DNA from: a virus
Lineage: Duplodnaviria > Caudoviricetes
IMG/VR virus record: IMGVR_UViG_3300008954_000001
DNA: 64,000 bases
Direction: 5' to 3' (one strand)
The notes under the pieces are model-generated. The model ran no database searches. It saw only the letters and a program-made list of their open reading frames with translations, and had not been told where the DNA came from. Shown here piece by piece: positions 4,462-55,502 of this stretch. Numbering within the stretch: position 1 is the stretch's first letter; each line of letters begins with the position of its first letter. A program made the translations under genes and the position numbers.

Positions 4462-4810
4462 TTTGGAAAGGCGTATCAGCATAGCCCTAACGCTGCTGTT
4501 CGCTCTGAACGTCACAGATGCTTTACTTACAATTGTTTGGGTACGCCTTGGGTTAGCCAATGAAGCAAATCCTCTTATGGCTGTTTTGGTAACAGACCAC
4601 ACCGTACTTTTCGTATTGGCTAAAGTGTTCTTGGTGTTGGCCGGGTGCTTCCTTTTATGGCGTTTCCGAATACAACCTCTTGCACGACACCTACTGGCAG
4701 TCTGTGTGCTGGCTTATGCGCTTGTAGTAGCGATACACACCCATATGATCCTTCAACTGGATCAAGTCCCACTCCAAGAAATCCAACGCTGTATAGAAGC
4801 GGCCTACTGA
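4424..4810 (+). CDS. DUF5658-like multi-pass membrane protein (start uncertain)
   Basis: LNVTDALLT...EANPLM motif and several TM helices. Confidence 0.6.
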   Translation: MGCFYRHSFRGIDLERRISIALTLLFALNVTDALLTIVWVRLGLANEANPLMAVLVTDHTVLFVLAKVFLVLAGCFLLWRFRIQPLARHLLAVCVLAYALVVAIHTHMILQLDQVPLQEIQRCIEAAY

Positions 4811-7800
4811 ATAGTGGCCACGTCTTCGGGGGAGCACTCGACTTCATGGGGGTGCTCGGTTTGTGGGTGAGCAACAAAGGTAACGCCCATCTTCTCCACA
4901 AAACTTTGGAAGATGCTCATATGTTGGTCTTCCCAAACATGAACAACATCAAAGCCATGTTTGACATGGAGTTGGTGGATGACCTTCTTCTTATAGCTTG
5001 AAGTGTCGCCCCCTTTATTGAGGTACACCTCATCGAAGTTGAGTCCCGCACTCTTCAAGAGTTCTGGCACACGCCAACGGAACCTCCCGTCCATCCTACC
5101 CGTACAACAGATGGCCCAAACATTTGGGTTCCCTATGCTTCGTTTAGCTTCCGCTACGGTTTTACCATCCCACCATTCCTTACCTGGAGCGAGAGGAACA
5201 CACGGAGGACTTAGAGATAATTGGTTTCCCCACCACCCCTTTTGATCCCACCACGAAGGTTTATGTGGGGATCGAAACAACGTCCCATCGAAATCAAACA
5301 AGTGTAGTTCTTTTCGGCCACTGGCCCTTAGACGGCGGTTTACCACCTGTTCAACCATGCCGGGATCAAGAACCTCTCCTTGCCTCCTCGCCAGAAAACC
5401 CACCTGGCCTCTCAAAACCGGACCATTGATCTTTGTGTATCCTCGACCAAGTAATTTGTTGCTGTAGGCAGGGGAAACACCGTTCACCGCAACCGTAATA
5501 TGGGCGACACCCTTGTCTTGTCTTTGAATCCCTCGTGGTTGCACAACAACCGCTTGCCCGTGCTCGTCTGCGCCGTACCCAACCACTTTGAGTGCAATAC
5601 TGGCCCCGACAGGGAGATCCATGATTTCTTTATCGGTAGGCCCAAACTTGATGGTCATGTGGTGCGCTTTCACAGTTGGGTGAAGCGGCCCCACATTCTT
5701 TGTCCACCATCGCAGCAGTGCTTGAGAGTCAGACAAGAACACACCTGAGTACACAGCCTGACCAGCAGTTCTGCTAACGGCGAAGTTTTCGTATTCCCCT
5801 TTGATTACTTTCTCGAACCATTCCTTGTGCTCTTTAGGTAGGGTCTTGGTGGCTCGCATAGAAGCGGCTTCGCAGAGGTGCTCTTCGGCATCGGAAGCTG
5901 CGTAAATGGACGGAAACTTGAGTTTGTTCTCCGACTTCTTAAACCAGCCGAAGAGCGTCATTCGTTCTACTGTGCCTATCTCTTTCTTTGTGGCGATATC
6001 TACAAGATGGGCGGCTCCCCCATTACTCCCGTACTCGCTAACCATGACCTCTTTATTGTTGACCTGCATAGGCAACACTTCGCCCACTTCGGGCAACTTG
6101 GTTTCCACCCTCTTTGTGCTCAAGTCGGAATGGTATTGCCGCCACCTTTGCCAAATCGCCTTATCGAGAAACTTGTTCTTATAGCGATGGGTTAGTTCGT
6201 GGATCAGGTTTTGAACAGCACTGACTTCGGAGATGCCTTTACCACTGACCCGAAAGTAAACGGCATCTTTGGAAGGCATGTACCAAGCAGCCCAATTTGG
6301 TCTGCCGATCTTTCCAACGATGTACACATCCCCATAAAGGGTACGAGCAAACCTCGGCAACCCTGTTCCTCGCTTCGATTTTCGGACAGCCTTTTCAAGA
6401 ATCTGAGAGATCCGTGCTCTTTCCGCTTCGTCAGCACCAACCGTGTCGTGAACTGTGAATGGCCCAACTGTCCAAATGCCCCCACCTTCGCTGGATCTGT
6501 CTTTCCATTTGATACTATCAATCAGGAGGGGCCAACGCTTTTTGTTCGTCCGATACCACTTGTCATAACCTTGCCTTGGTCCTTTCCCCCTGCCGTACCG
6601 CACGGAAAAAAGCCTCGCAAGCATCTCAACACCTTTAGCCCTCCTTGCGGGGATCGCCTTCTTATCGATGACATGCTCAAGCCATTTCCGCCCGATTGCG
6701 TAAAACCTTTGCCACGCCATCCACAGTTCTGCCGTATTGCCCAACCCATGAGCTTCGTTGTAGTCGATGCGACTTTCAAACTCGTAGTAGGTCATCACAA
6801 GGGCCTCGGCCACCAGTGAAGGCGTAGCTTTTTTATCCCACTTCTCCATAACGGTGCCGTCATGGATGTAGGAGTCCTCCATCTTAGGGACAAGGTACTG
6901 TGAGCGTAGCGTTGAGGACTCGTGGCCTACGACTTCTGCGGTCGCTTCAAGGGCTTTCGTGAACTCGGCTTTGAGGATTTCGTCTTTCTCTTTTCGGTCA
7001 GTGGGGAGGGTCTTGCCCTTCTTACGCTGTTCTTTGAGTTGCCTGACCATCTCATCGTTGGCTCGGAATCCACGAATGTCTTTAGCGGTGATGTCGTACT
7101 TCTTTAGGTACTTGTTCACATCCTCTGCTTTGACAATACAATCGTCGCCTTCACACAGGACGGTATCTGTACCCGACTTGCCTTTGAGGGCTTTCTTCAA
7201 CGCTGAAACTGTTGCGTGGTCCGCAACAGTCTTCTTTTGGTCTACGCCTGACTTGCCTGTGTAAGTGAGGGTGGCTTTGCTGCCTGTGATTTTTACATGC
7301 TTGGCTTGAAGCGTGGTGACCCCGAAATGGCCTCGGTCTTTTACGGATTGGTCGTTGCCTACTCGCTCACAGGTTTCGTCCATCAGGGCGACTGCAAGGG
7401 CTGTCAAACGGACTTCGGGATCATCGGATTTGAGATCAGACTTGTACTGTTTCCGCAGGTCCAGGATGTTGCCTTTAAGTTTTTGAATCCGCTTCGCTTT
7501 TTCACGGTTGCGGTGGTCCACCTGTCCTTTGGAATACTCGTAGACGGTGGTCTTCCCAGACCCGTCAGCTTTATCCACCTGTTTCTTCTTCTTGAACTTG
7601 GCGGCTACTCGGCTGGCGGCTGCGTGAAACGTAGGCTGATAGTCAACTCTGGGCCATTTCACGAGGTTCAGGTCTTGATTGACCAACTCAAACTCATCTC
7701 CGACCTTGGGCTTAGGGTAAGACCAATACTGCTGTGCCATGAGTCCGGGGTGTCTCCCGATAGGCTCCAAGTCCTTCGGGTGGATACGCCTGATTTTGAA

Positions 7801-7932
7801 GACCACTTTATCAACGTAGTCGGGATCGGTGGGGTGTGTCTCGATCCTCAAAAGAGCAAGCTCGGAACCTTTCAAGGTCTTGAGGATCTGCCCCTTCCTG
7901 AAACCAGGGTTCGCATCGTATCGGGTGCTCAT
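4804..7932 (-). CDS. Multidomain protein: DNA topoisomerase IB + zincin-like HExxH domain + 2H phosphoesterase + HAD phosphatase
   Basis: TopIB pentad R190 (CERVGN), K227 (GKSG), R287 (DIR), H337, Y346; HELTH (578-582) with downstream YAASDAEEHLCE; 2H motifs HHMT and HITV; HAD motif FDFDGTLF followed by CCTGR. Confidence 0.8.
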   Translation of the reverse strand: MSTRYDANPGFRKGQILKTLKGSELALLRIETHPTDPDYVDKVVFKIRRIHPKDLEPIGRHPGLMAQQYWSYPKPKVGDEFELVNQDLNLVKWPRVDYQPTFHAAASRVAAKFKKKKQVDKADGSGKTTVYEYSKGQVDHRNREKAKRIQKLKGNILDLRKQYKSDLKSDDPEVRLTALAVALMDETCERVGNDQSVKDRGHFGVTTLQAKHVKITGSKATLTYTGKSGVDQKKTVADHATVSALKKALKGKSGTDTVLCEGDDCIVKAEDVNKYLKKYDITAKDIRGFRANDEMVRQLKEQRKKGKTLPTDRKEKDEILKAEFTKALEATAEVVGHESSTLRSQYLVPKMEDSYIHDGTVMEKWDKKATPSLVAEALVMTYYEFESRIDYNEAHGLGNTAELWMAWQRFYAIGRKWLEHVIDKKAIPARRAKGVEMLARLFSVRYGRGKGPRQGYDKWYRTNKKRWPLLIDSIKWKDRSSEGGGIWTVGPFTVHDTVGADEAERARISQILEKAVRKSKRGTGLPRFARTLYGDVYIVGKIGRPNWAAWYMPSKDAVYFRVSGKGISEVSAVQNLIHELTHRYKNKFLDKAIWQRWRQYHSDLSTKRVETKLPEVGEVLPMQVNNKEVMVSEYGSNGGAAHLVDIATKKEIGTVERMTLFGWFKKSENKLKFPSIYAASDAEEHLCEAASMRATKTLPKEHKEWFEKVIKGEYENFAVSRTAGQAVYSGVFLSDSQALLRWWTKNVGPLHPTVKAHHMTIKFGPTDKEIMDLPVGASIALKVVGYGADEHGQAVVVQPRGIQRQDKGVAHITVAVNGVSPAYSNKLLGRGYTKINGPVLRGQVGFLARRQGEVLDPGMVEQVVNRRLRASGRKELHLFDFDGTLFRSPHKPSWWDQKGWWGNQLSLSPPCVPLAPGKEWWDGKTVAEAKRSIGNPNVWAICCTGRMDGRFRWRVPELLKSAGLNFDEVYLNKGGDTSSYKKKVIHQLHVKHGFDVVHVWEDQHMSIFQSFVEKMGVTFVAHPQTEHPHEVECSPEDVATIQ

Positions 7933-8186
7933 TCTTGCTCCTCATGCCGAAACCAGACTCGGAACAGTTGAATGGCTTTCGTCTGCTTGCGCCCTTTGGG
8001 AATAGGGTCTACCAAGACAAGGGGGTTCCCTTTGGGGTCTTTGTCGAACCCAACAATCACACCAGCCTTGTTCTTGTATTTGCCGTACCACACCTGATCT
8101 CCCTCATTCAGCGTAAGCGTGAGGGCTTCTTTCTTCCGTGCGTACTTAGCAGCTACTCTGGCAGCCCAAGGGTTCTCTTTCATCAC
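7929..8186 (-). CDS. Small KOW/SH3-like basic protein with N-terminal RVAAKY tag
   Basis: LNEGDQVWYGKYKNKAGVIVG KOW-like strand pattern; coupled to both neighbours. Confidence 0.55.
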   Translation of the reverse strand: MMKENPWAARVAAKYARKKEALTLTLNEGDQVWYGKYKNKAGVIVGFDKDPKGNPLVLVDPIPKGRKQTKAIQLFRVWFRHEEQE

Positions 8187-10678
8187 ACGCCCTCGTGTTC
8201 GAGGATGGACTTGATTTCTTCTTGGGTCAGCCCCTTATCGAATTTTGCGTGGGCATACTCAACGATCTTGCCGACAAACTGTTCATAAAGTTCGTCGCTC
8301 TTGCCCTCTTTAGCGAGGCGGATCATGTCCTTGTCTTCAAGGATGGTATCGATTTCGGTAGAAGCAATCGTAGATACGGCGTTGACCATCCATTCCACAG
8401 CACTTCCAATACCCCCAAGAGCACCCGTCCCGTAGTTCCCCACAGCTTCAGCCATCGACCCACCCGCAAGCGTAGCTACATCCTGAGCGCCTTCAGCGTG
8501 GAGAAGCATCTTATCCCCTACCGCCGTGTACGCACCGATGCCGATATGGAGCGTAAGGGAGTTCAGAAAGGCTTTACCACCCACGGCGGCAAAGCCACCC
8601 GCAGTTGAAATGCCTCCGGTGGCAATACCGACACCTGTCGCTACTGCTATACCTCCCGCATAGATAGCGGAGCCGTATAGAACATCCCTCTCGCTGGCCT
8701 CTCCTTCACTACATTCAGTTTTGGAGCCTTCCGCATCACACCCCTTGGGCCATTTCTTCTTCTCGCTTGAAGGCACCCGCCCCTCTTTGATGCAATCCAT
8801 CAGAATCGTGGGTGTGTTGATAGCAACATTCCGAACTTCTCGAACGGTCGAGCCAGCCAGCTTTTTAACGATGTTTACAGGATTTGCGTGTTCCAGAATC
8901 TTCTTAGCAAGGCTTTTTGATTTCTTCTCGTCTGTGATCTGCGAAACGGCTTCTTGACCTTCCTTGGTCTGAATAGCTTTCGCTGTGGAGGCTGGCAGCT
9001 TCGTACCCTCAGGCACCCCCGCCGCTGACAAATGGGCTTTAGAAGGTGCGCTACCACCCCCAGAACCACCCCCGCTTTGGCTCTTTACCTTATGGTCACG
9101 CTCTTTGGCATTCGGGTGATCTCGCAGATGTTTCTTCATCGCCTCTTCGGTGGCGTGTTCCATCGCATAGCGATGAGCGACCTTTTGAGCCGAAAGTTTG
9201 AGTAAATAGCGTTCGGTTACTCGGTCTTGGCTGGTCTTGATCCCAGCTTCGGCAAGCTCATCTTCCAGTTCGTCGAGGATATCTTGCAAGGAAGTGGCTC
9301 CTGTGGGGGAACTTGACCCAACCTTCCCCATAGCTTTGTTCATAAATAGTTCCGGGTCGAAAGACAATGTGGGCCTCCCTTGCAATACAGCCCTTTCAAG
9401 AGAATCCTCTACTGAAGCTGTTGATAGGAAACGTAAAATAATCTCAGGATTGATATACGACTTACGAGTAGTATTCGCAGAGTCGTGAGACAAAGCGGCT
9501 TGCGCCACATCAATAGCCCTATTCAAAGTCTCCACAATCGCTTCCACCACCCTCTGTTTCAGGTCGGTTTTCGCTCCTGTGGAAAAGGCTTTAATCCGAT
9601 CAAACAAGGCGGCTTGTTCGTCTCGAAGCGCATCTAAAACAGCTTCCGTAGCCCGTAACTTCCTAAAGTCTGTGGGGGAAACGTCTTTGAACCGCTCTCG
9701 AAAGTAGCGTTGAAGGTCAGAGTAGGTGACTCGTTGGCCCTTGCTGGTAACGAAGATGAACTTACCGCCCTTAGCCTTGTCGGTTTGGGCTTTCAGGATC
9801 TTGATGATTTCAGCGTCCGTAAGGGAAGCGAAGTTATGGCCCCCCTTCTTGCCCAAGAATTCCAGTTCGGCAAAGTTGTCTCGGATGAATCTAACGTGCG
9901 ATGGGCCAAGCGTAATGGCCCCAAACGTCTCGATCTCAACCTTTTCTCCGTTCACCGTCTTAATGGCGGCATTTCCCTCTTTACCGGGTCGGATGCCTGT
10001 CTCCATCATGATCGCAGTAATCAGGGCGGAGAGCTTGATGACCTCATCCCCTGACTTTAGATCCCGCTTCACCTGCTTGGCGATCTGGTTGTAATCCCGA
10101 ATCAGGTTGTGCATTTTGTCGATCTTCTTCCCAAGCGTCAGGTGTTCGTTCTCGAACCGATCTGTGATCCCTTGAACTTGCCCGTTCTCATCGACATCTA
10201 CGACGATGTTATCGGGCAAGAAATCTCGAAGCTCGGTGGGAAGCACTTCCCGCATAGGGCCTTGGGCTTCGGCCATTGTGATCGCTTGAAAGCCCTTAAA
10301 GGCTTGTTTGTGGACTTCTACCAGAGCATCCCGAATAGTTTTACCTTTTGTAAGAACATCACGGGCTTGGTAGAGGATGGCTGACCGCCATGAGTAGGCT
10401 TTGGGGTGGTCGGCTTCCTTGCCGATATAGGTGTCTAAGTATTCGAGAAAGATGGGGTTATTCTTCACCAACTTGACGAAAGCTCTGGCCCTGCGAGAGA
10501 TCGACCCCTTATCCCGACCAGGGTGCTCCACTTTTGCGGAATCCGCATAGGGCTGGAGGGTTTTCAGGAGTTTCTTGAACTCCACCCCCGCCTTGCGGAC
10601 ATGCTTCTCCTGATCTTTTTTGTCTCGTTTGTACTGCCGAGACTCGTTAGTCGGTACTCTTGCCATTCGCTCTCTCAC
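8183..10678 (-). CDS. Second DNA topoisomerase IB fused to a Gly/Ala-rich hydrophobic C-terminal region
   Basis: Pentad R230 (GIRPG), K277 (GKKG), R339 (DFRK), H398, Y408 (SYINP). Confidence 0.75.
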   Translation of the reverse strand: MRERMARVPTNESRQYKRDKKDQEKHVRKAGVEFKKLLKTLQPYADSAKVEHPGRDKGSISRRARAFVKLVKNNPIFLEYLDTYIGKEADHPKAYSWRSAILYQARDVLTKGKTIRDALVEVHKQAFKGFQAITMAEAQGPMREVLPTELRDFLPDNIVVDVDENGQVQGITDRFENEHLTLGKKIDKMHNLIRDYNQIAKQVKRDLKSGDEVIKLSALITAIMMETGIRPGKEGNAAIKTVNGEKVEIETFGAITLGPSHVRFIRDNFAELEFLGKKGGHNFASLTDAEIIKILKAQTDKAKGGKFIFVTSKGQRVTYSDLQRYFRERFKDVSPTDFRKLRATEAVLDALRDEQAALFDRIKAFSTGAKTDLKQRVVEAIVETLNRAIDVAQAALSHDSANTTRKSYINPEIILRFLSTASVEDSLERAVLQGRPTLSFDPELFMNKAMGKVGSSSPTGATSLQDILDELEDELAEAGIKTSQDRVTERYLLKLSAQKVAHRYAMEHATEEAMKKHLRDHPNAKERDHKVKSQSGGGSGGGSAPSKAHLSAAGVPEGTKLPASTAKAIQTKEGQEAVSQITDEKKSKSLAKKILEHANPVNIVKKLAGSTVREVRNVAINTPTILMDCIKEGRVPSSEKKKWPKGCDAEGSKTECSEGEASERDVLYGSAIYAGGIAVATGVGIATGGISTAGGFAAVGGKAFLNSLTLHIGIGAYTAVGDKMLLHAEGAQDVATLAGGSMAEAVGNYGTGALGGIGSAVEWMVNAVSTIASTEIDTILEDKDMIRLAKEGKSDELYEQFVGKIVEYAHAKFDKGLTQEEIKSILEHEGV

Positions 10679-12310: not shown

Positions 12311-12505
12311 TCACTTTGGTTTGTTCCATGGCTTTTTGCCCCAAGCGATGAGAAGTGCTTTACAAAGAGTCAAAACGATTCGATTGTGGTTGTGGAAGAT
12401 ATTCAACTGCTGTCTACCCGACAGCGACAACCATTCTCTTACTTGTTCTTCCGAAAGAGTTTCTGGGTCCCAGTTTGGTTCTTCAGATTTCTTTCGATAG
12501 GACAC
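12311..12505 (-). CDS. Hypothetical protein (likely GTG start at 12505; ORF track extends to 12598)
   Basis: AAGGTGAGG RBS before GTG. Confidence 0.45.
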   Translation of the reverse strand: MSYRKKSEEPNWDPETLSEEQVREWLSLSGRQQLNIFHNHNRIVLTLCKALLIAWGKKPWNKPK

Positions 12506-14763
12506 GACCTCACCTTTGGAAAACCCACATCGTTGGGATGAATACATTGTTGTGTAGGTAGGTGCAGCCACATTTCTTGTGTTTGGTGTGTACCGCACTG
12601 CGTTGGTTTATGTTTCAGTTTTGAGAGAGATTGAAACTGAAACACTCCAAAAGCAGCGGGAGAGAACCGCATAGTTCTATGAATAGGTAACAATAGGGGA
12701 TCAATCGAATAACTGTCCCATAACCAAGCCCCTTGCTGGGCATCTTCGCCACCACAAGCGGTTTCTTCAAGGATATCCATAAGGTTGTCGAACATCACTT
12801 GTGGGTTCGCAGTAAGCTGAAACCAAGACCCGCCAACGGAAACAGGCTCCCACCCAAGAGGGCCAATTTGCCCCCCACCACCCGATTTGCTGAAAGTGTA
12901 GATGGATAAATCATCCGCAGCGGCGGCCCACTCTTGGATAAGGGGTTGTGTTGTCATGGGGTTAAGAAAACTTTGGCCGTGTTCATCAGAGAAGATAATT
13001 ACGACGTGGTGAACATCCTCTCGCCAATTGATATGCCAGTTATCAATGCTGGGATCAGACCCCACTCCGAAGCCCCCCCAATTCAGTGGGGGTAGTGCGG
13101 GCACATCTCCAGGCTCAACCAGATTTCTAATGCTCAAAAGCAAAGCATCGTAAAGCATCTCGCTGCTCGTGGGTTCATCATCTACCGTCGCCAAATGCCC
13201 CAAGAACTGATTGAAGGGAACGAGATTGGTAGCCAAATGAAGAGTGTCATCGAAGTTTTGATCGATTGGCCCAACCACCAAACCCCATTGGACAACTTCT
13301 TGATCCGCATAATGGGTTGAAAACATACCCATCGCTTGCTGAACAGCATTGATTGTAGAGGACATGGAGCCAGAGGTGTCCACGATGAAGAGGACATCGG
13401 TGTCTTCTAAGACATTTTCAATGACTCCATCACAGTTGTCATCCTGACCTGTGCATAAGTCTTCTTCCAGCGGCGTAACTTCTCCCAGACACATGTCTTC
13501 AACGAAAAACTCGTCTACAAAGTTGCCCCACTGACCACTTACGCACAACATATCCCCAGGAGCGCAAACCCCAACATTCACGGTTCCTTCTGGCCCTGTG
13601 TAGCATTGGGCCATCAAATCCTCATCGATCAGTTCGTCGCAATCGTCATCAAAGTTGTTGCAAATCTCCTCCACAGGAGTCCCGCCTGTTGGGTCACACA
13701 CTTCGTTTGGTTCGGGCAACCAATGGCACATAGCAAAACATTGTGTCATTTGAGTTGTTACACAGTTTTCATCGGCGCACTCGCAGGACTTGAACCCTTG
13801 TCCACAAAGGAGCGGGTCTTCCATGCACGGGATCAAGAACCCGATCATTTCGGGCGGGCAAGCACAATCCAGCCCATCATCGATCAGCCCATTACAGTCG
13901 TCATCTAATCCGTTGCACTCTTCGGGCATCGGGGGCTGTGCGGTGCATCCTGTCCAAGCTCCCTCAATGCAAAATTCAACCCCTTGCTCACAGTCGGTTT
14001 CACACCCTTGAAGCAACTCTTCGTCTGTCAATGCGTCACAGTCGTTATCGAGGCCGTCACAAACCTCTGGGACGGGTAGAGGGGCATCGCAAAGGACTAA
14101 CTCGCCTTCGATGCAAAGAGCGTTTCCTGGCCCACACTCGGACTCACAGGGGTACTCCCCTTCGTCCACGACTCCATCGCAATCGTTATCTATCGCATCA
14201 CAGATTTCGACCTCACACGGAACACAAGGGCCAGCCATGATCTGCCCCTTCTCGCAGGTGAAGTCTTGAAGTCCTGTATATTCCTCCCCGTTCTCATCTA
14301 TGTCCGTGCAAGGGACATCTTCATTGACGATGATATCTGGGTTGGTGGGATCACACTCAAGCCAATTTTCACACTCTCCCATACTGACCACTTGCCATTG
14401 GCAGTCGGGGTCGTTGGCGAAAGCGGGGGTACAAGGCTCTCCGTTGGCATCGCAGACATCTAAAACCAAGGCTTGCATATAGAGGGCGGGATCGTCTCCG
14501 GGAGGGTGGCCGTCAGGGGTGCAAAAGAACATTTGGGTTTTCCAGCACTGCTGCTGGTATTCATATTCTTCCCCACAATGACAAGGTACGCCGCAGCATC
14601 CCGAATCCGCTTCCTCATCGGGGGTATCCGCATCTATGAAGGGAATGTCGGCATCTGAAGGGGTGGATATTCCCCGTTCAGGCACATCGGCTTCGTTCCC
14701 GCTTCTGTTTTCCGTACACCCGAAAACGGCCAATACCGCCAACAACCACAATGTTTTCTTCAC
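12439..14763 (-). CDS. Lipoprotein with Cys/Asp-rich CDxxDNDCDG repeats and a vWA domain
   Basis: Lipobox-like AVFGC; repeated CDAIDNDCDG/CDGLDNDCD/CNGLDDDCNG/CNNFDDDCD; vWA strand DVLFIVDTSGSMS with intact MIDAS DxSxS. Confidence 0.75.
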   Translation of the reverse strand: MKKTLWLLAVLAVFGCTENRSGNEADVPERGISTPSDADIPFIDADTPDEEADSGCCGVPCHCGEEYEYQQQCWKTQMFFCTPDGHPPGDDPALYMQALVLDVCDANGEPCTPAFANDPDCQWQVVSMGECENWLECDPTNPDIIVNEDVPCTDIDENGEEYTGLQDFTCEKGQIMAGPCVPCEVEICDAIDNDCDGVVDEGEYPCESECGPGNALCIEGELVLCDAPLPVPEVCDGLDNDCDALTDEELLQGCETDCEQGVEFCIEGAWTGCTAQPPMPEECNGLDDDCNGLIDDGLDCACPPEMIGFLIPCMEDPLLCGQGFKSCECADENCVTTQMTQCFAMCHWLPEPNEVCDPTGGTPVEEICNNFDDDCDELIDEDLMAQCYTGPEGTVNVGVCAPGDMLCVSGQWGNFVDEFFVEDMCLGEVTPLEEDLCTGQDDNCDGVIENVLEDTDVLFIVDTSGSMSSTINAVQQAMGMFSTHYADQEVVQWGLVVGPIDQNFDDTLHLATNLVPFNQFLGHLATVDDEPTSSEMLYDALLLSIRNLVEPGDVPALPPLNWGGFGVGSDPSIDNWHINWREDVHHVVIIFSDEHGQSFLNPMTTQPLIQEWAAAADDLSIYTFSKSGGGGQIGPLGWEPVSVGGSWFQLTANPQVMFDNLMDILEETACGGEDAQQGAWLWDSYSIDPLLLPIHRTMRFSPAAFGVFQFQSLSKLKHKPTQCGTHQTQEMWLHLPTQQCIHPNDVGFPKVRSCPIERNLKNQTGTQKLFRKNK

Positions 14764-14766
14764 AGC

Positions 14767-15078
14767 TTACCCCTTCTTCTTTGCTCCCTTACCCGAAGAT
14801 TTTTTCTGAAAGCCCGACACAAAAACTTGATGTAGCAACACCCCAAAGGTCTGGATGGTCTTGTGCTCCATCTCGGCTTCCGCAAAGTGATTGAGGGCTT
14901 CAATCACCTCATGCCAAAAAGTTTCCCAAGCAAGGGAATCGGAGAGGCTTTTGTCCAAGTAGATCGACATCTTGTCCAGATCCCACATTCCGTAGGCTTC
15001 GGAATGTTCTACAAGGTCTTGTTTCATAACGACCTTTATTTCATGGCCGCCAATTTGAATTTTGCTTGGGATTTCCAT
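14767..15078 (-). CDS. Small phage protein with HExxE (zincin-like) motif
   Basis: ETFWHEVIEAL; YGMWDLDKMSIYL. Confidence 0.55.
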   Translation of the reverse strand: MEIPSKIQIGGHEIKVVMKQDLVEHSEAYGMWDLDKMSIYLDKSLSDSLAWETFWHEVIEALNHFAEAEMEHKTIQTFGVLLHQVFVSGFQKKSSGKGAKKKG

Positions 15079-15080
15079 CT

Positions 15081-15890
15081 CTAATCTGCCTCTTTCTCCT
15101 TTGTAGGAGGACTTTTCATGGCCTTATCTTTGACAGATTCCATGACTGTCCGAATTCCTGCATAGGGGGGAGAAAAAGCGATATTCTCAAATCCGACCAG
15201 AGTGCCACTGGTGACTCCCACTAATTCACCGTTCTCATTAACGATGGGGGAACCAGAGCTACCGCTTTTTGTTGGGATTGTGTAAACGTCGTATGGGATC
15301 GGCACACCGCCCAAATCTGGGTTTGGTGGGGGGTATTCCGAAGTCGTTCCAGCACTCAAACCTTCCAGTATGGGCAGAAGGTCGGAGCCGAAGGTTCCTA
15401 AAGGAGCGGCCATGGCAAAGACTCTTTCGCCTCGCTTAGTGGGCCGTGGTGCCATTTCAAGGATGGCGGGAGGTCGCATACCTCTGATCTTTAGTACGCA
15501 AAGATCCAAACTCGGATAAATGTCTTCAACAGCCGCTTCGTAAGCGACACCGCCAAGAATCATTACTCGAACATAGGAACTGGTTTCGGGTTCAAAGAGT
15601 TCCCCATCAGGCCCTTGTAAGATAACTTTGTTCGGGGCACAGACATGGCCCGCCGTGATCCCCCATGAATCAAAACCATTTGTGGCGGCTATAAAACCAG
15701 AGCCAGAGAAGGAAGCCCGCCCAAGCTCCATGCACTGATCTCCCACACACGTAGAGAATACGACTCTCTTGATTACAAAGAGAAAGCTGTTGTGGGCGAA
15801 CTGAGAGGGGTTCATCCGAGCGGTGCGAGCACAGGATGTGGTTAAAATAAGCAGTAGCATGGTGCTGATTATTACAATTTGCCGTTTCAT
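15081..15890 (-). CDS. Trypsin-like (S1) serine protease, probable lipoprotein
   Basis: TAGHVC, DLC and GSSGSP catalytic motifs; LTTSC lipobox; ATG 15890 overlaps the upstream stop (ATGA). Confidence 0.8.
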   Translation of the reverse strand: MKRQIVIISTMLLLILTTSCARTARMNPSQFAHNSFLFVIKRVVFSTCVGDQCMELGRASFSGSGFIAATNGFDSWGITAGHVCAPNKVILQGPDGELFEPETSSYVRVMILGGVAYEAAVEDIYPSLDLCVLKIRGMRPPAILEMAPRPTKRGERVFAMAAPLGTFGSDLLPILEGLSAGTTSEYPPPNPDLGGVPIPYDVYTIPTKSGSSGSPIVNENGELVGVTSGTLVGFENIAFSPPYAGIRTVMESVKDKAMKSPPTKEKEAD

Positions 15891-17488
15891 TCTTCCCTCA
15901 CAGGGCAAAACATGGTCCCGATAGGACCGTCTTCGAGATCCACTAAAACACCCATCAAACCAGCTTCACTGGTGACGTAGCCTTTGCCCGAATGCCATGC
16001 GTCTGGCGAAGCAAGGGAGGGCAATAGATAGTGTCTAATGCCGCCGATTTCTTGGATGCGTTGATGATGTAGGTGGCCGCCAAAAGCGACGTGGTGCCGA
16101 GCTTTGCCCCAATCGGCCCGCCGTTCTTTTGCCATAATAGGCCCCAGGTCTTTGACCTTGGCCGTATCGCCATGTGTAAAACAAGCTAAGGTAGTGCCAA
16201 TAGACTGATACACACGCATCTGGTGGTTGCGAACCACCTCTACTCGATTGCTGCCCTCATATGCAGCGTGGAGATAAAGTAGGAGTGCGTGAGAGTTAGC
16301 CCGGTCATGGTTACCGGACATGAGCACAACTTTCACGGGAGCAACCTGTGAAAGAATATCGATATGCTCTCGTTGAAGTTCACAACCCGTCAAAAGAATC
16401 TCCAAAGCGGAGCCTTCCGAATCTTGGGGGGTGCCTTTCGTAGTCGCTTTCTCTGGCCCGATCCCATCAATGTGAAAGAAATCTGACCCTACGGCGACCG
16501 TAATACCTTGTGGTTGACCGGGTAATCGAGAGATCAAGTCTTCCGTACTTTGCATCAATCGTTTTCGGGCAATGGTTCGATTGTAATCGTGACCACTCTC
16601 TCCCGCCCATGAGTACATGCCCCAATGAAAATCTGTGGCTGAAGTGACTAACCAGTAAGGCTTATCCGCCCGATGGAGCTTCAACTTCGGGACCGTGTAC
16701 TCGGTGTGGAAATCTCCAACCCAACCTCGAATACGATTGAGAACTGTGGCCTCAAAATCCCACCAGCTTCGAGCGGCGGAGGCAGTCTCTCTGGCACCAA
16801 GCTCTTCCGTCTTGGTCGCCAAGGCTCCAAACTTTAGAGCTAAAGCGTCTTGCGCCAGTTCATCAACACCACGCTTTGCTACCTCTTCGGCTGAAAAGGG
16901 GGCTGAATCATGTGTGATCCCATGTGACTTAAGGTAGCCGACAACCCAGTTTCGAGGGAGGCCCGTGCGACGAGAGATCCCGTTCAGCGAAACAGGTTGT
17001 CCATCCCAATTTGAATACCAACGAAGAATAGAGCGATGGGCTTCACCAGATGTGGTTACCCATCCCTTTGCCTGTTGGATATATGTTTTGTAGGAGTCGC
17101 CCGCTTCGTCAAAGACATAGAGATTGTGCTCTACATCTATTGGCTCAAAGGCAAGGTCATCCGAGTTAGAGGCTTCTACCTCTAAGTCATCCTCTTCTAA
17201 TGTGTTATCGGACGAGGCTTGTAGGGCCTCGAAAAACCGGATCGTTGTTAAACGGTTCGGTTTGGTTGTTGGAGGGTTTGTATTTGGACCGCCCTCCTGC
17301 TTCACTCGTTTGATGCACAGGTCAACGTCCCATCGTTTCGGTTCGCTGCCCTCGGTCAGGGCCACTAACTGTATTAGGCCAGTACGACCTAATGGTACAG
17401 TGGCAACCTGATCTCCGTACTTCTCCCAGAGTAGGTCGGATCTTTCGCTCAAAGTAAAACCCCCATCCCGTAGCTTCGGGGTAGCCAA
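15887..17488 (-). CDS. Calcineurin-like metallophosphoesterase with N-terminal extension/HTH
   Basis: TDFHWG, GSDFFH, GNHD, HGD and GHLH motifs; TTG start uncertain. Confidence 0.75.
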   Translation of the reverse strand: MATPKLRDGGFTLSERSDLLWEKYGDQVATVPLGRTGLIQLVALTEGSEPKRWDVDLCIKRVKQEGGPNTNPPTTKPNRLTTIRFFEALQASSDNTLEEDDLEVEASNSDDLAFEPIDVEHNLYVFDEAGDSYKTYIQQAKGWVTTSGEAHRSILRWYSNWDGQPVSLNGISRRTGLPRNWVVGYLKSHGITHDSAPFSAEEVAKRGVDELAQDALALKFGALATKTEELGARETASAARSWWDFEATVLNRIRGWVGDFHTEYTVPKLKLHRADKPYWLVTSATDFHWGMYSWAGESGHDYNRTIARKRLMQSTEDLISRLPGQPQGITVAVGSDFFHIDGIGPEKATTKGTPQDSEGSALEILLTGCELQREHIDILSQVAPVKVVLMSGNHDRANSHALLLYLHAAYEGSNRVEVVRNHQMRVYQSIGTTLACFTHGDTAKVKDLGPIMAKERRADWGKARHHVAFGGHLHHQRIQEIGGIRHYLLPSLASPDAWHSGKGYVTSEAGLMGVLVDLEDGPIGTMFCPVREE

Positions 17489-21347: not shown

Positions 21348-22289
21348 TTAATGCCATCTTCGCCCTCGATATCGAGAGGCGACTTTGCGGGCGGTGTGTT
21401 TGAGGACTACGTTGGAAGCCCACATTCCGTAATCATCACGGGGGCCGTACTTGGCCTCATAGGGAATGTCATAGTCGGGGTCTTCATCTGGCGGCTCATA
21501 TCCTGGCTGATTCATTTCCCAAACATTCTCAAGATTCCGCCCTAAAAGAGCGAATGACCCATCCGAGTGTTCTTGGTGTATTTCCTCCAACTCGTCCATC
21601 TGCTTGTCCGTGTAGTCACGTCGTCGCACTTCGAGCCGATCCGCCATAGCGTTGTAGTCGGGCTTGGAGGGTTGTTTTTGAGGCCGCTCAGAGATGTTGT
21701 ACTTGCGGAACATCTTCTCTGCGAAAGCGATTTGCTTATCTGATGGCTGGCGAGTCTTAGCCCGTTTACCCACATCTTCGGCAAACCTCTGCACATAACT
21801 ATCGTTTGCGGCCTTCGCTGCGAGCCATAATTGACGGAGCCTTTCAAGAAACGTCTCATCTGAGGAATAACTTGAACCCGAACCGCCCGATTCCTGTTGT
21901 TTCGGCTCGGCTTCCTCACCACGCCCGATTCGGTCATAGAAATCAGGGTACTTTTGGTACACGCCTTCCCAATGCCGAACGCCAGCGAGCCAAGTCTTTT
22001 TCCAACCCTTTGTTCGCATAAAGGATTTGCGATCCTTTGCCTTCGCATTGAGAACCCGTCCCGTGATGCGACTGACAAGCGTGAGCTTCATGGAGGCTTT
22101 ACCAAGCCCTCGAACTTGGGAAGTCGCTCCAATAGAGGAGGAGAGCTTGATGGCCACGGAGTCACTGAGATGAATCAGATAGATCCCCGCAAACTTTTGA
22201 TCCCGTGACCAGTTCCTACCGAAGTTGCGGCGAAGCCACTCTTCTAACTCTTCACGAGAAATCTGAACATATCGATCACCAGCAGCCAT
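21348..22289 (-). CDS. Hypothetical protein with C-terminal KVASRY tag
   Basis: Long ORF coupled to the UvrD gene. Confidence 0.7.
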   Translation of the reverse strand: MAAGDRYVQISREELEEWLRRNFGRNWSRDQKFAGIYLIHLSDSVAIKLSSSIGATSQVRGLGKASMKLTLVSRITGRVLNAKAKDRKSFMRTKGWKKTWLAGVRHWEGVYQKYPDFYDRIGRGEEAEPKQQESGGSGSSYSSDETFLERLRQLWLAAKAANDSYVQRFAEDVGKRAKTRQPSDKQIAFAEKMFRKYNISERPQKQPSKPDYNAMADRLEVRRRDYTDKQMDELEEIHQEHSDGSFALLGRNLENVWEMNQPGYEPPDEDPDYDIPYEAKYGPRDDYGMWASNVVLKHTARKVASRYRGRRWH

Positions 22290-48213: not shown

Positions 48214-48471
48214 TTAGTCTCCTTTTCGAGTCTTATTCGTTCCAATTGCCCAAGGTGTAGCATCCTCAGGGATTGCACCCGGTAATACTACCCTTCCCTC
48301 AAGGGCATAATCCTTTCCGCCCGCAATTTCATCTAACCGCTTTTTTACGGCGGCTCGTTGCTGTTCGGAAAGAGCAGGGTTCAATAAGGCTCGCCTCAAT
48401 GACTTGCGCCACCTTTCTACGTGGGGAGACTTCTTTTTTGGGGAGATTTCTTTTGAGCTAATTCGGTGCAT
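48214..48471 (-). CDS. Small basic hypothetical protein
   Basis: Coupled to 48471; GAGG RBS. Confidence 0.55.
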   Translation of the reverse strand: MHRISSKEISPKKKSPHVERWRKSLRRALLNPALSEQQRAAVKKRLDEIAGGKDYALEGRVVLPGAIPEDATPWAIGTNKTRKGD

Positions 48472-51400
48472 TATTCGTCCTCTCCCGGATAAGCGAGTGG
48501 GGGCATATGCGGGTCAGGTAGATCCCGTCTACGAGCTTTGTGCATCGGACGACCGTCAATACGGTATCGATCTGCTGCCGCATACCCTTCACCGAACCCT
48601 GTGGGGGAAATCTCCCCGCTCAAAGTAATTCCCTCTTGTAAGGTCTTGCCGTTACTGAGGACTCCATAAGTAACAATGAGGAGTTGGATCTCATCTCCGT
48701 CAGAACGCTTTTTCCCCACATGGGCGTTGGAAAAGGCATGTTCGTAGAAGTTCCTGACCAATATGGCCTTACATGCGAGGGCACCGCCCTTCATCATGGG
48801 ATCAAGAGATTTTGGCATCGAATCAGCTACCCAATCGATTGGGCCTCCTGGCTGATCCCCCGATAAGTTGAATACCGCCCCGCCGCCTCGATGGAGACGG
48901 AACTTCTTAACACCCGTATCCTCTGTGAAACCTTGGTAAGGGGCGTATTTGTTGATTGCCCCATCACTCATTGCGATTAACTCACCCGGCGCACCGAAAA
49001 ATCGTGTGTACTCTTGTCCGTTTGCTGCCAAAGGCAAAACATTCTGAACAGGGCGGATCGCTGATGTGCTGGTACGGAAAGCCGTAGCATTGTCTCCCAG
49101 CGGGTTTTCGCAAATGAAATCGGAGTCTTGAAGTAGGATTCCCAACGGCAATCGCTCGGTCATACCCGTCAGTCGAAGTTGGCTTTCTCCCAACCCTGCA
49201 TTGACAGGAATATCCATACCGCCAGCGAAGTTCGCCGCCGTAATGTGCTTAGGGTACTGCGTATTGTCGGTCGGAACTCGAATCGAAATGATTTGGTGCG
49301 CCATCGGAGAGTCTACATCGTGTACCCAATCAGGCCCAAACCCAACCTCAACACGCATTTGATTACCGATAGCTCCCGACTGTAGGGCTTCCAAAGTAAG
49401 GACATGCGAACCGTCCCAAGAACGGTTCCTTCCTCGACCACTGGTATCTAATGCCGATTGAAGTTCGGGATGGTGGCTAATCAGCATCCAAATGCTTTCC
49501 AAGGTGTTGTTCCAATTCTGGAACTCCGTACCCGTAGAATGCACTTTGAATTCGTTTGGACCCCATGGGCCAGCTTCCCAGTCAGCCTTTCCTGTAAAGG
49601 TAACTCGGCCCCCGTCCAAACGAGTAATCGTAATTTGGAAATCATGGAGAGCGGCCAACTGTTCAGGACTAATCCCAAAACGAAGCTCCGCTTGCGCCCG
49701 TGAAGGGTTCGTAATCTGCCCTTCCGTGTAGGCCCGTGATTGTACGTGCCACCGCCGAAAATGAACCGTCGCTTGATCTTCCGTGGGAACACGGATTGAA
49801 GAACCCGATGTTGGCTCAACTACGCCCACATCAAGTGCGGTGCCAGGGTATAACTTCCCTGCGATCTTGCCCGTTCCCATTGTCGTATAGAAATCCAAGC
49901 TGGCAAGGACTTCAAACCCACGAGGGTTCGGACGCTGAACCAGCAGGTTTCCATCTTCATCGAACTGTTTGATCGATTTAGATAGTTGATGGGTCTTTAG
50001 GAGACTTAGGCTTCCATACCGCTGTTGGTAATCATGCCTGTCAATAGAGTCTCCCGAATGGGTCATAAAAGGATCACCTTGATAGGGTGTCCGTGAGTAT
50101 GCGTTGTAGCCCGCATCGTTCTTGTTGGGGGCCGCTGGAACAACCATTTCCACATCAGCAAACTCGGCCTCTCCGAGAGACGCAAGGTCTTGGGGAACGC
50201 CTGAGTGTTTACGAGCAAGCACATAGTTATTCTTGTTGATAAACCCACGAGCAAAGCCGAACACCACACATTCAACAACATAGTCGAAATCATCAAAAGA
50301 ATGGCCGTCCCAATTCTCTGACAAGGTATGGTCAATGGCCTCACTTGGAATAATGTAGGTGTGGTCGTCTTCGTTGCCTGTGATACTCCCACCGTAAGTA
50401 CAAGTTGTCTCATCGTACTCGTACCCACCACCCTGTCGGATAAAGAGAGTCTGCTTGTCGGCATCTGTCTTTAGCAGGTTGGTTGGGGGGTTCTTAATCG
50501 GATTGATCCGAGCCAAATCCCCCGTAGCGTCAAACCCACCAGGAACATCGTCCTGTTGGTGCGCCTCGAATTCTTGTCGTTCGTAAACACCATACAAGCG
50601 AGCGATCCCGTAGTTCGGAGGAAGTTCAATACCTCGCATCCCGTAGCCGAGATCCGAAGAAATCACTTCGGGGAGGTAAACTTTCCTCGCCCCAATCGTC
50701 GGAGAAGCCGTCTGAGCGATCTGATTGCGAACACCATAAATGGTGTCTGTCTGAAACAATATCGGGGTTACTTGCTCATCTGTTGTAGAACCCTCGTTGT
50801 CCTCTCCGCCGATAATTGCGAATACATCTTCCGTCTCATTGGTGGAGTCCACGAAGAGATGGTTGATCCCAGACATGAAGGGGTCGTTGTCACCCACTCG
50901 CACATGGTACGGAATGTCCTGCCGCCCAAACTTCGGCATAACCTCTGGCGGAAGGGCAAAGCCCAACACCATGTTGGAGGTCCAAATATGTGCGGGATCT
51001 CGCAAGCTGTCTTTTGACAGCCCATGTGAATAAGTCTTTTCACCAATCAAAGAAGGGTCGGCTTCAGTTTCGTGTGTCCGAAGCGTCATTGTACGCCGTT
51101 GGAAAGGCCGCCAAATAACTGTCTTTGATCCGTGATCTACGAAAAGCTCGCACTCACGGTCCTGCTCAGACCGAAGAACAACTCGGCCACCATAATGAGG
51201 GGCCTCTGGAGCATTCCAACCCAAAGCAGGCAAATGGTTCCAAAGCTGAACGTGTGTCGGGCGATAATGCCGTTCTGTTTCAGGGAAAGAGGTGGCTCCG
51301 TTCCACTCAACATCAATTTCATTGATGTCGTTCCGAAGATAACTGGTCCCACCGTCCACAACCGCTACCCGCTCAATCTGATCGGGAACCCGTGTTGAAC

Positions 51401-55501: not shown

Positions 55502-55502
55502 T

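Follow-up and report, generated by a model that had tools for sequence, protein, structure and literature searches.

Polyvalent proteins of phages and conjugative elements, in which several unrelated enzymatic domains are carried by one polypeptide, were described by Iyer, Burroughs, Anand, de Souza and Aravind in 2017 (PMC5512222). Recurrent 2H domains, ART-PolyVal, LPD1 and InPase domains and extensive shuffling are among their features, together with a hub protease that was tied to anthrax lethal factor (4dv8) by HHpred (PMC5512222). Their 2H domains were argued to be more likely degraders of signaling nucleotides or RNases, because they were not seen with RNA ligases (PMC5512222). Besides, the jumbo phages PaBG, Lu11, phiRSL1, Motura and NCTB encode a phage-specific type IB topoisomerase (TopIB), listed under DNA-topology functions (PMC7824862), and a two-step scheme, in which a 2H enzyme is followed by a "Swiss-army-knife" HAD phosphatase, has been put forward for jumbo phages (PMC7824862 section 3.4.9).

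The protein considered here, P0001, contains four catalytic modules in a single chain, namely a TopIB, a zincin metallopeptidase, a 2H phosphodiesterase and a HAD phosphatase, with every key residue kept. It is encoded in a window (the whole 64,000-nucleotide stretch of DNA that was analyzed) from an IMG/VR virus record of a huge, uncultured, marine phage, and the same protein is also present on a 323-kb contig. As the original prediction had it, positions 4804-7932 of the minus strand form one uninterrupted open reading frame of 1042 aa with an ATG start, and the residues it named (R190, K227, R287, H337, Y346, HELTH 578-582, HMT 758-760, HIT 811-813, DFDGT 880-884) all lie where it placed them. 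Its four domain calls are likewise correct, by Pfam for TopIB and HAD and by predicted structures for the zincin, 2H and HAD modules (Table 1). P0001 is probably a string of independently folding and independently mobile enzymes of this huge marine phage, and there is a reasonable likelihood that it belongs to the phage-type polyvalent proteins as understood by Iyer et al., acting early in infection and most likely carried or delivered by the virion. A TopIB-led subfamily is absent from the description of these proteins, since the word "topoisomerase" appears there once, in the title of a cited Toprim paper (PMC5512222).

Table 1. Features of P0001 and of its adjacent genes (coordinates refer to the window).
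Feature	Coordinates	Strand	Basis
N-terminal module, aa 1-100	7633..7932	(-)	movable module in relatives
Portable tag peptide S-R-V-A-A-K-F at aa 107-113, directly ahead of the TopIB module	7594..7614	(-)	motif count
Type IB topoisomerase module, aa 106-369; pentad R190 K227 R287 H337 Y346	6826..7617	(-)	Pfam, alignment
Lethal-factor-like zincin (polyvalent-type metallopeptidase), aa 406-710; H578 E579 H582, Y677, E684	5803..6717	(-)	predicted structure
2H cyclic phosphodiesterase (CNPase / tRNA-ligase CPD-like), aa 717-848; H758xT, H811xT	5389..5784	(-)	predicted structure
Helix of low confidence between 2H and HAD (linker), aa 857-870 (..VEQVVNRRLRAS..)	5323..5364	(-)	model helix 146-159, pLDDT about 49-58
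HAD phosphatase (T4 Pnkp phosphatase-like, Pfam HAD_SAK_1), aa 873-1039; D880 D882 T884 T944 K981 E1001 D1002	4816..5316	(-)	Pfam, predicted structure
84/85-aa gene overlapping both neighbors by 4 nt; tag RVAAKY and small domain	7929..8186	(-)	sequence
Divergent second TopIB protein of 831 aa, with tags at aa 486 and 499 and a C-terminus that is hydrophobic and rich in Gly	8183..10678	(-)	Pfam

The TopIB module is recognized by Pfam Topoisom_I (PF01028) at aa 140-341 (E 1.6e-26, 93.5 bits against a curated cut-off of 23.7), and the TopIB profile reached 96.2 bits in the genome search. In the alignment with the Deinococcus radiodurans enzyme 2f4q (E 3.6e-12), H337 and Y346 face its Asn and Tyr; the catalytic pentad Arg-Lys-Arg-His/Asn-Tyr is complete and, judging from the sequence, the topoisomerase is apparently active. 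Pentad and catalytic-domain fold family are shared with the D. radiodurans and vaccinia enzymes, as well as with the phage-specific TopIB of PaBG, Lu11, phiRSL1, Motura and NCTB. However, the N-terminal DNA-binding domain seems shortened compared to that of D. radiodurans TopIB, since the match to 2f4q starts at its residue 68, opposite aa 121 of P0001. Unlike in bacteria and poxviruses, the module, which ends at a conserved border (...DGTV...K-K-A), is preceded by a peptide tag and forms part of a multi-enzyme chain. Its gene is in tandem with that of a second, divergent TopIB (Pfam Topoisom_I, E 2.9e-14), in which R, K, R, H and Y are kept in the alignment to P0001. The vaccinia (poxvirus) TopIB is encapsidated and, like it, the module of P0001 may relax the very long DNA of the phage on entry, in early transcription or in replication.

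The zincin part gives no significant Pfam match and was assigned from its predicted structure (pLDDT 95.3), for which every structural match is a zincin. The best ones are anthrax lethal factor (M34), with a Z of 9.8 over 189 aligned residues, which lies near the background range quoted for the tool, and the ATLF-like PPEP-2 (Z 9.1). With lethal factor and PPEP it has in common the HExxH motif (HELTH, from H578) followed at the same spacing by the lethal-factor-type Tyr-x6-Glu (Y677, E684), Glu serving as third ligand, and H578, E579, H582, Y677 and E684 are invariant in 49 of 49 zincin sequences. Weak profile matches to the C-terminal helix of lethal factor were also obtained (E 0.11, not significant), and the lethal-factor sequence YGRTNEAEFFAEAF resembles the YAASDAEEHLCEA motif seen here. 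The P0001 zincin nevertheless differs from lethal factor and PPEP by its N-terminal region of three helices and by the insertion of a beta-sheet, and belongs to a family of its own, which comprises at least 455 representative clusters (E<=0.001) and for which there is no Pfam model. Members of this family, to which peptidase-like proteins of phages PaBG and Motura are matched, range from 233 to about 3500 aa, often as stand-alone proteins of about 350 aa and with up to four copies per protein. As the best match is lethal factor, just as reported by Iyer et al., the module fits their hub, a role that proteases of this type play in the polyvalent proteins of phages.

The parallel originally drawn between this module and the DNA-protein-crosslink proteases Wss1/SPRTN is not a specific one. 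Both have the zincin fold with HExxH, but Wss1 (Z 8.1 and 7.1) falls behind lethal factor and PPEP-2, at the level of generic zincins; no third His is invariant, the family-wide invariant residues being H, E, H and R and then, far downstream, G, Y and E; and no SprT-like Pfam match was found in P0001. With these features and the Glu third ligand, the module shows no particular likeness to Wss1/SPRTN. Preferential association with TopIB is lacking as well, since in 128 of 142 representative clusters the zincin is found with no detected TopIB and, conversely, 96 of the 116 TopIB-bearing relatives of the first search have no zincin (local profiles in both cases).

The comparison with relatives argues for modules that move independently. 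More than 100 proteins have the same TopIB module, about 50-76% identical, beside partners that vary in kind and order, and TopIB (TOP), zincin (MPT), HAD and 2H follow each other as HAD-TOP, TOP-MPT, MPT-TOP, HAD-TOP-MPT, TOP-HAD-MPT or MPT-MPT-HAD-2H-TOP. P0002, whose TopIB module is 99% identical to that of P0001, is yet devoid of exactly the zincin cassette (aa 371-724, with junctions ...DKKA/TPSL and ...SRTA/GQAV). The original prediction held the modules to be functionally coupled and had named domain shuffling among homologs as the observation that would speak against it; such shuffling is, to a large extent, what the permuted order and the loss of the cassette amount to. P0001 is probably a shuffled modular polyvalent effector for early infection, not a dedicated kit for the repair of its own DNA-protein adducts. 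Pfam domains that were built from polyvalent proteins (LPD1, InPase and ART-PolyVal) are carried by relatives with the TopIB or the zincin module, whereas P0001 itself has no LPD, ART-PolyVal, InPase or MPTase-PolyVal match in Pfam. Other enzymes found in relatives are Fe/Mn SOD, PAP2, PolyA_pol/CCA-type, RNA_ligase, cREC, GNAT, HD and PRTase domains, and inteins occur too. Within such a chain, the zincin might release working pieces from the polyprotein, or from other tagged proteins, by cleavage, or alternatively attack host proteins.

A further feature of the family is a portable R-V-A-x-R-Y tag, with 275 matches in 119 relatives vs 42 in shuffled sequences (145 vs 38 in a second enrichment count). 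The matches cluster at protein termini and module borders, only 9 of the 145 falling inside recognizable domains, and many stand-alone zincins are tagged at one end. The tag also marks other proteins of this phage, with 8 matches vs 2.45 expected in the 152-kb record. Its position at module borders and its presence on other phage proteins hint at a role in capsid loading, and more generally these tags, possibly along with the K-x-A borders, may serve as address or processing marks. The genes of P0001, of the 84-aa protein and of the second TopIB overlap by 4 nt, and both neighbors are modules that are fused in other phages, the small module of the 84-aa gene lying inside about 29 other proteins of the network. 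This arrangement recurs in L003-L006 and L008.

The genomic context leaves some room, albeit limited, for an unpackaged cytoplasmic enzyme of replication and repair, in which TopIB would assist in replicating and transcribing the huge genome, the remaining modules would be metabolic add-ons and the tag would dock to a non-capsid target. Phage TopIB is classified under DNA topology, as mentioned above, the operon neighbors are replication and repair genes (SbcD-like exonuclease, UvrD-like helicase, SNF2 helicase and PolA), and no head gene came up among the scanned neighbors, the scan covering a minority of the open reading frames of the 152-kb record; in this respect P0001 seems to depart from the polyvalent proteins of Iyer et al., which are encoded with head genes. 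This reading is unlikely, however: the family network holds the injected-polyvalent hallmarks ART-PolyVal, LPD1 and InPase, a tag at the termini and module borders of unrelated proteins resembles an address label, and the TopIB gene of the cultured jumbo relative Xanthomonas phage PhiXhv-15 belongs to a co-oriented block, in which it precedes the head-tail connector gene by 2.7 kb.

Regarding the C-terminal half of the putative virion-delivered protein, the 2H and HAD modules were modeled together (pLDDT 87.7). For the 2H module, the superposition with CNPase covers 130 residues at Z 12.8 and rmsd 2.6 (Foldseek probability 1.00), and H758-M-T and H811-I-T are both kept in 8 of 8 sequences. In Pfam this part has no significant match, with PF08302 alone appearing at E 0.029 (14.3 bits vs a cut-off of 23); the same PF08302 (tRNA_lig_CPD) is carried by the relative P0264 in precomputed annotation. 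The HAD module matches HAD_SAK_1 (PF10307) at aa 896-1015 (E 8.8e-12, 45.7 bits vs a cut-off of 25.6) and PHROG 415, a polynucleotide kinase, and its fold is closest to the 3'-phosphatase of T4 Pnkp (Z 14.0, rmsd 2.5, 130 residues) and to Pnkp1 of the Pnkp1/Rnl/Hen1 complex (Z 13.4), mammalian PNKP phosphatase following at Z 8.7. HAD motifs I-IV are conserved: all 23 aligned rows have D880, D882, T884 and K981, while T944, E1001 and D1002 are kept in 22 rows among those aligned at these columns. All catalytic motifs of the two modules are kept and the folds superpose, although identity to the solved structures is only 14-15%. Differences are nonetheless apparent: the chain has neither a 5'-kinase nor a ligase and, compared to CNPase and Trl1 CPD, the 2H module is compact, measuring about 130 aa in total and separating its HxT motifs by 53 residues.

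Since the HAD module is nearest to T4 Pnkp/Pnkp1 and the 2H module to CNPase and tRNA-ligase CPD, an RNA-repair reading suggests itself, and it is further supported by relatives in which the same modules are fused to RNA ligase (P0040) or to CCA-type nucleotidyltransferases (P0016, P0020, P0265, P0127, P0133), an association that sets them apart from the polyvalent proteins of Iyer et al. Healing of RNA 2',3'-cyclic-phosphate ends, offered as an alternative in the original prediction, is therefore the best-supported role of the C-terminal half. The 2H enzyme would open the 2',3'-cyclic phosphate ends that metal-independent host nucleases leave on tRNA or other RNA, and the HAD phosphatase would then strip the remaining phosphate. 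The two would thus form a 3'-side end-healing pair, kinase and ligase, or RtcB, being supplied elsewhere; neither RNA ligase nor RtcB was found in the 152-kb record, which represents about 36% of the genome. The absence of a kinase and a ligase from P0001, and the failure to find them in this record, would also be consistent with the 2H-HAD pair destroying host immune nucleotides (2'-5'-linked or 2',3'-cyclic-phosphate messengers of CBASS, type III CRISPR or similar systems) within a polyvalent protein. Such a role was preferred by Iyer et al. for polyvalent 2H domains (PMC5512222), free 2',3'-cyclic nucleotides are substrates of CNPase, to which the structure is closest, and the cREC and InPase domains of relatives act on nucleotides. 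This counter-signaling function nevertheless appears quite improbable, as the nearest HAD structures are polynucleotide 3'-phosphatases of RNA-repair enzymes, the modules are fused to RNA ligase and CCA-type tRNA nucleotidyltransferases in relatives, and the 2H of P0264 matches the fungal tRNA-ligase CPD family.

Another question is whether the RNA-end healing pair and TopIB are united by more than shuffling. Vaccinia TopIB and yeast Top1 generate 2',3'-cyclic phosphate at ribonucleotides, so that incision by TopIB at a DNA-embedded ribonucleotide (or in RNA) could yield a 2',3'-cyclic phosphate and a 5'-OH, which 2H would open and HAD dephosphorylate to restore a 3'-OH end. If true, this non-accidental union would constitute a virus-borne, TopIB-initiated pathway of ribonucleotide-nick or RNA-end repair, delivered as tagged capsid cargo. 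TopIB indeed recurs with HAD_SAK_1 and with two 2H subfamilies, that of P0001 and PF13563 (P0081, P0084, P0086, P0087 and others), HAD is directly N-terminal to TopIB in 21 relatives, and in the zincin-seeded sample it is more frequent with TopIB than without (3/14 vs 5/128, Fisher p 0.03, a statistic that ignores shared ancestry). Given this modest enrichment, TopIB and HAD may be functionally coupled to some degree. Chemical coupling of the three modules, as well as their delivery as one pathway, is however highly doubtful, because neither HAD nor 2H was found in 74 of 119 TopIB relatives (local profiles), the partners include the plainly unrelated SOD, PAP2 and GNAT, and the HAD enrichment is weak. 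Finally, the self-contained kit of the original prediction, in which the zincin would degrade the protein of trapped TopIB-DNA adducts and a phosphodiesterase and a HAD 3'-phosphatase would clean the DNA end, is scarcely credible: four activities in one chain, the PNKP-like HAD fold and the presence of Wss1 among the zincin matches would suit it, but the zincin is of lethal-factor/PPEP type and mostly apart from TopIB, the near-identical P0002 has none, the Pfam scan of the whole of P0001 gave no Tdp1-like domain, and cleavage of 3'-phosphotyrosyl bonds is not known for 2H enzymes.

Mobility is also seen in other parts of the locus. The N-terminal module (aa 1-100), for which neither a Pfam match nor a lead in the protein atlas was obtained, recurs as a movable unit in P0006-P0010 and P0012 at 51-56% identity and is replaced by an unrelated N-terminus in P0002. 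In the same way, the N-terminal 180 aa of the 831-aa TopIB protein recur in P0063, P0166, P0172 and P0158. The helix sequence VEQVVNRRLRAS in the linker between 2H and HAD seems to be a degenerate tag-like sequence.

P0001, the 1042-aa multi-enzyme protein, is encoded by a single open frame of 1042 codons, and the residues highlighted by the original prediction are all present at the positions it had given them: R190, K227, R287, H337 and Y346, HELTH at 578-582, and the motifs H758-M-T, H811-I-T and D880-F-D-G-T. Pfam recognizes Topoisom_I at aa 140-341 (E 1.6e-26) and HAD_SAK_1 at aa 896-1015 (E 8.8e-12), both well over the cut-off, the latter family being described there as "HAD domain family 1 in Swiss Army Knife RNA repair proteins", while PHROGs places aa 871-1031 in a polynucleotide-kinase family. 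The TopIB part aligns with the Deinococcus radiodurans enzyme of solved structure (E 3.6e-12), and poxviral and eukaryotic enzymes align with it as well. No significant match was obtained in Pfam, NCBIfam or PHROGs for aa 1-135, 365-560 and 540-720, nor did a protein-atlas search with aa 1-105 give a usable result. Two candidate matches, to DUF2161 (19.8 bits, under the cut-off) and to the TipC immunity family (14 bits), lie inside another domain and were taken as chance. The module borders listed in the table were drawn from profiles built on relatives. As judged from these profiles, the motifs and the predicted structures, P0001 is shown to combine four apparently intact catalytic modules that are independently mobile in evolution.

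Features of the window and of related phage loci, with module borders within P0001
Feature	Position	Strand	Remark
P0001 frame	4804-7932	-	single open frame
TopIB module	aa 106-369 of P0001		border from profiles of relatives
Zincin module	aa 406-710 of P0001		border from profiles of relatives
2H module	aa 717-848 of P0001		border from profiles of relatives
HAD module	aa 873-1039 of P0001		border from profiles of relatives
84-aa gene	7929-8186	-	tag and small domain; overlaps both TopIB genes by 4 nt
Second, divergent TopIB (831 aa)	8183-10678	-	Pfam E 2.9e-14, pentad kept
Conserved block, window	12439-17488	-
Conserved block, L003/L004	445-5494
Conserved block, L007	16535-21245
Tagged ORF	21348-22289	-	tag motif
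Tagged ORF	55073-55528	-	tag motif
Giant ORF (1902 aa)	48471-54179	-	no Pfam or PHROG match
Giant ORF (at least 2792 aa)	55503-63881	-	no Pfam or PHROG match
Patatin-like and AcrVA2-like genes, L008	4858-8194		Tara contig

This mobility is apparent from the relatives of P0001. A word-seeded search retrieved 147 proteins of 570-1800 residues, and among the best 120 of these the TopIB module is common to nearly all, mostly at 50-76% identity, accompanied by HAD_SAK_1 in at least 34 proteins, by PF13563 (a 2H family other than that of P0001) in at least 15, by PAP2 in at least 14 and by Fe/Mn superoxide dismutase (SOD) in at least five. Further TopIB partners are a PolyA_pol/CCA-type nucleotidyltransferase, RNA ligase, InPase, LPD1, cREC, DUF5661, DUF4258, GNAT and HD; among relatives retrieved with the zincin, the accompanying domains are ART-PolyVal, PRTase, PolyA_pol, inteins and TopIB. 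Of these, the Pfam families LPD1, InPase and ART-PolyVal were defined on polyvalent proteins, the multi-domain effectors of phages and conjugative elements (Iyer et al. 2017, PMC5512222). In the closest relatives (P0004, P0005, P0007, P0009 and P0012; loci L007 and L008), SOD and the PAP2 phosphatase are fused to TopIB-zincin chains, and SOD as possible virion cargo is unusual.

The order of the modules is permuted as well. When TopIB (TOP) and zincin metallopeptidase (MPT) orders were counted in a TopIB-seeded and a zincin-seeded set, HAD-TOP occurred 21 times, TOP-MPT 13 times in the first set and once in the second, and MPT-TOP four and nine times, next to HAD-TOP-MPT, TOP-HAD-MPT, HAD-MPT-TOP and MPT-MPT-HAD-2H-TOP; the order TOP-MPT-2H-HAD was found in P0001 only, among the relatives compared. 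A natural experiment in modularity is provided by P0002, a near-identical relative (99% identity in the TopIB module, 93% in the 2H module, 80% over the whole C-terminal half of 2H and HAD) with a different N-terminal module, in which the chain reads ...MEKWDKKA directly followed by GQAVYSGVFL..., whereas P0001 has 354 more residues, the protease cassette, between ...DKKA and ...SRTA (junctions at aa 370/371 and 724/725). In most relatives, the TopIB module ends with ...DGTV-x5-6-K-[KT]-A, beyond which the sequence diverges. Judging from their sequence, these TopIB ends and the cassette borders D-K-K-A and S-R-T-A may be processing sites. A conserved charged linker, T-K-T-D-A-E-R-E-D-E-A...K-P-x-P-K-K-K-P-P-R-H-D-L-R, directly follows many TopIB modules (P0022-P0026, P0076, P0081-P0087 and others).

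The zincin module turned out to represent a large family in its own right, with 455 representative clusters at E <= 0.001, occurring either as stand-alone proteins of about 350 residues or as part of giant proteins that reach about 3500 residues. In an alignment of 49 members, H-E-x-x-H-R, one Tyr and one Glu are invariant, and the AlphaFold2 model built on this alignment (pLDDT 95.3) has zincins without exception as structural neighbours: anthrax lethal factor comes first (Z 9.8 over 189 residues), followed by the Pro-Pro endopeptidase PPEP-2 (Z 9.1) and then by aminopeptidases level with Wss1 at Z 8.1. In Foldseek alone the matches were weak, none against the PDB reaching E <= 0.001, and a PDB sequence search with the zincin profile gave nothing better than E 0.11, a match that falls on the C-terminal helix of lethal factor. 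Since the Y677-x6-E684 spacing of P0001 equals what we take to be that of the tyrosine and the third zinc ligand of lethal factor, the module is, on its sequence and predicted fold, assigned to the gluzincins of the lethal-factor kind and not to the SprT/Wss1 type: in the latter the third ligand is a His, whereas Glu E684 appears to take the corresponding role in P0001. The peptidase-like proteins of phages PaBG and Motura also match the zincin model, both phages being listed as jumbo phages that have a phage-specific TopIB (PMC7824862). A zincin metallopeptidase was described as the commonest hub domain of polyvalent proteins and was linked to lethal factor (4dv8) by HHpred (Iyer et al. 2017, PMC5512222).

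As for the C-terminal half, the predicted structure of aa 712-1042 (pLDDT 87.7) superposes on the CNPase catalytic domain over model residues 9-141 (Z 12.8, rmsd 2.6, 130 residues), while model residues 161-316 superpose on the 3'-phosphatase of T4 Pnkp (Z 14.0) and, both at Z 13.4, on T4 PNK and on Pnkp1 from the Pnkp1/Rnl/Hen1 RNA-repair complex. The 2H and HAD active-site residues are kept in all relatives aligned there, except for one or two HAD rows at 4 of the 7 HAD columns. The 2H module would open 2',3'-cyclic phosphates, after which the resulting phosphate would be taken off by the Pnkp-like HAD module, a two-step healing that has been described for jumbo phages (PMC7824862). Kinase and ligase are absent from this scheme in P0001, and RNA ligase or CCA-adding modules are present in the chains of relatives; searches of the 152-kb record, which covers about 36% of the genome, detected neither RNA_ligase nor RtcB, and the window holds no tRNA genes. 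In the same chain, TopIB would relax the long phage genome at entry or in early transcription or replication, and the zincin would process P0001 itself or further proteins, in line with the proposal made for polyvalent proteins (Iyer et al. 2017, PMC5512222).

A looser coupling of the modules than that of the original prediction is possible, though unlikely. TopIB makes 2',3'-cyclic-phosphate nicks at ribonucleotides, and 2H and HAD could possibly heal those nicks. The recurrence with TopIB of two distinct 2H subfamilies and of HAD (3/14 vs 5/128, p 0.03, a statistic that ignores shared ancestry) is in line with such a coupling, but most TopIB relatives have neither 2H nor HAD. The original prediction of a kit resolving TopIB-DNA adducts does not hold, because the zincin is apparently of the lethal-factor and not the SprT/Wss1 kind, zincin and TopIB occur independently of each other, and the Pfam scan of the whole protein showed no Tdp1-like domain.

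Healing of RNA ends within a polyvalent protein is the reading favoured here. Two genes next to P0001 belong to the same module network. Upstream of P0001 stands the 84-aa gene and then the 831-aa second TopIB gene, each with a 4-nt overlap. The 84-aa protein matches no Pfam family, and copies of its module, 39-60% identical, are fused within about 29 other large proteins. Counterparts of the second TopIB's first 180 residues are present in P0063, P0166, P0172 and P0158, and in P0063 this segment immediately precedes the TopIB part. By sequence comparison, the 84-aa protein and the second TopIB are modules of P0001's own network. The C-terminal end of the second TopIB is Gly-rich and hydrophobic, resembles the N-terminus of the 2756-aa protein P0129, and could be a membrane-active or ejection-related part. 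One related phage has the TopIB-2 gene right ahead of a TopIB-zincin-SOD gene, and another retains the 84-aa gene.

These proteins also share a short, strongly enriched portable tag (consensus S-A-x-R-V-A-[AS]-[RK]-[YFW]-[LK]), with 275 matches in 119 relatives vs 42 in shuffles, and 145 vs 38 in the zincin set, where just 9 of the 145 lie inside recognizable domains. It is found at extreme N-termini, right before TopIB, some 325 residues further on and some 13 residues short of C-termini; in this phage it marks termini and module borders of proteins that are otherwise unrelated, it is spread over hundreds of metagenomic relatives, and its carriers include stand-alone zincins. In P0001 it reads SRVAAKF (aa 107-113). 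The 152-kb record holds eight tags vs 2.45 expected, six near a protein terminus, one right before the P0001 TopIB module and one mid-protein, their carriers being P0001, the 84-aa protein, the second TopIB (twice, RVAxRY at aa 486 and 499) and four unassigned proteins; neither the other tagged ORFs nor two adjoining ORFs match anything in Pfam. The tag was also seen at loci L009 and L010. Together with the K-[KT]-A borders, the tags would be consistent with marks for addressing or processing capsid cargo, and modules bearing them would be loaded into the head. The cultured Xanthomonas jumbo phage PhiXhv-15 has a TopIB gene (28% identity) 2.7 kb upstream of its head-tail connector gene, both within a single block of genes of the same orientation. 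No head gene was seen among the scanned neighbours of P0001, and in the consulted text of the PaBG virion proteome paper neither TopIB nor the peptidase is named among the 14 proteins identified.

Polyvalent proteins as a kind are already known. A TopIB-led subfamily that has RNA-repair partners and carries RVAxRY tags does not figure in Iyer et al. 2017 (PMC5512222), whose only use of "topoisomerase" is in the reference list, within the title of a cited Toprim paper; nor did literature searches on phage, capsid-borne or polyvalent type IB topoisomerases turn up a description of the P0001 architecture. The polyvalent concept is thereby widened to a large TopIB-led subfamily, of which one search gave more than 100 clusters, seen in uncultured phage DNA including several contigs over 200 kb and linked to RNA-end-repair enzymes, and the tag may let virion cargo be predicted from sequence. 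If packaging is true, the genome of some huge phages would enter the cell accompanied by a DNA swivel and a kit for RNA repair, in parallel to poxviruses.

The window is part of a 152.5-kb IMG/VR record estimated to be 36% complete; an identical P0001 protein is encoded on aquatic metagenome contigs as long as 323 kb, a Tara Oceans assembly is the source of the relative P0005, and within the deposited phage collection a 485-kb uncultured phage matches best. Neighbour genes of P0001 encode an SbcD-like exonuclease, a trypsin-like protease, UvrD-like and SNF2 helicases and PolA. A block encoding a 774-aa protein with MopE-like metal-binding motifs, the trypsin-like protease and the SbcD-like exonuclease is conserved near the TopIB operon in related phages. 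Finally, at L008 the TopIB polyprotein gene is preceded, at a distance of a few kb, by genes for a patatin-like protein and for an AcrVA2-like (PF26125) protein of 502 aa.
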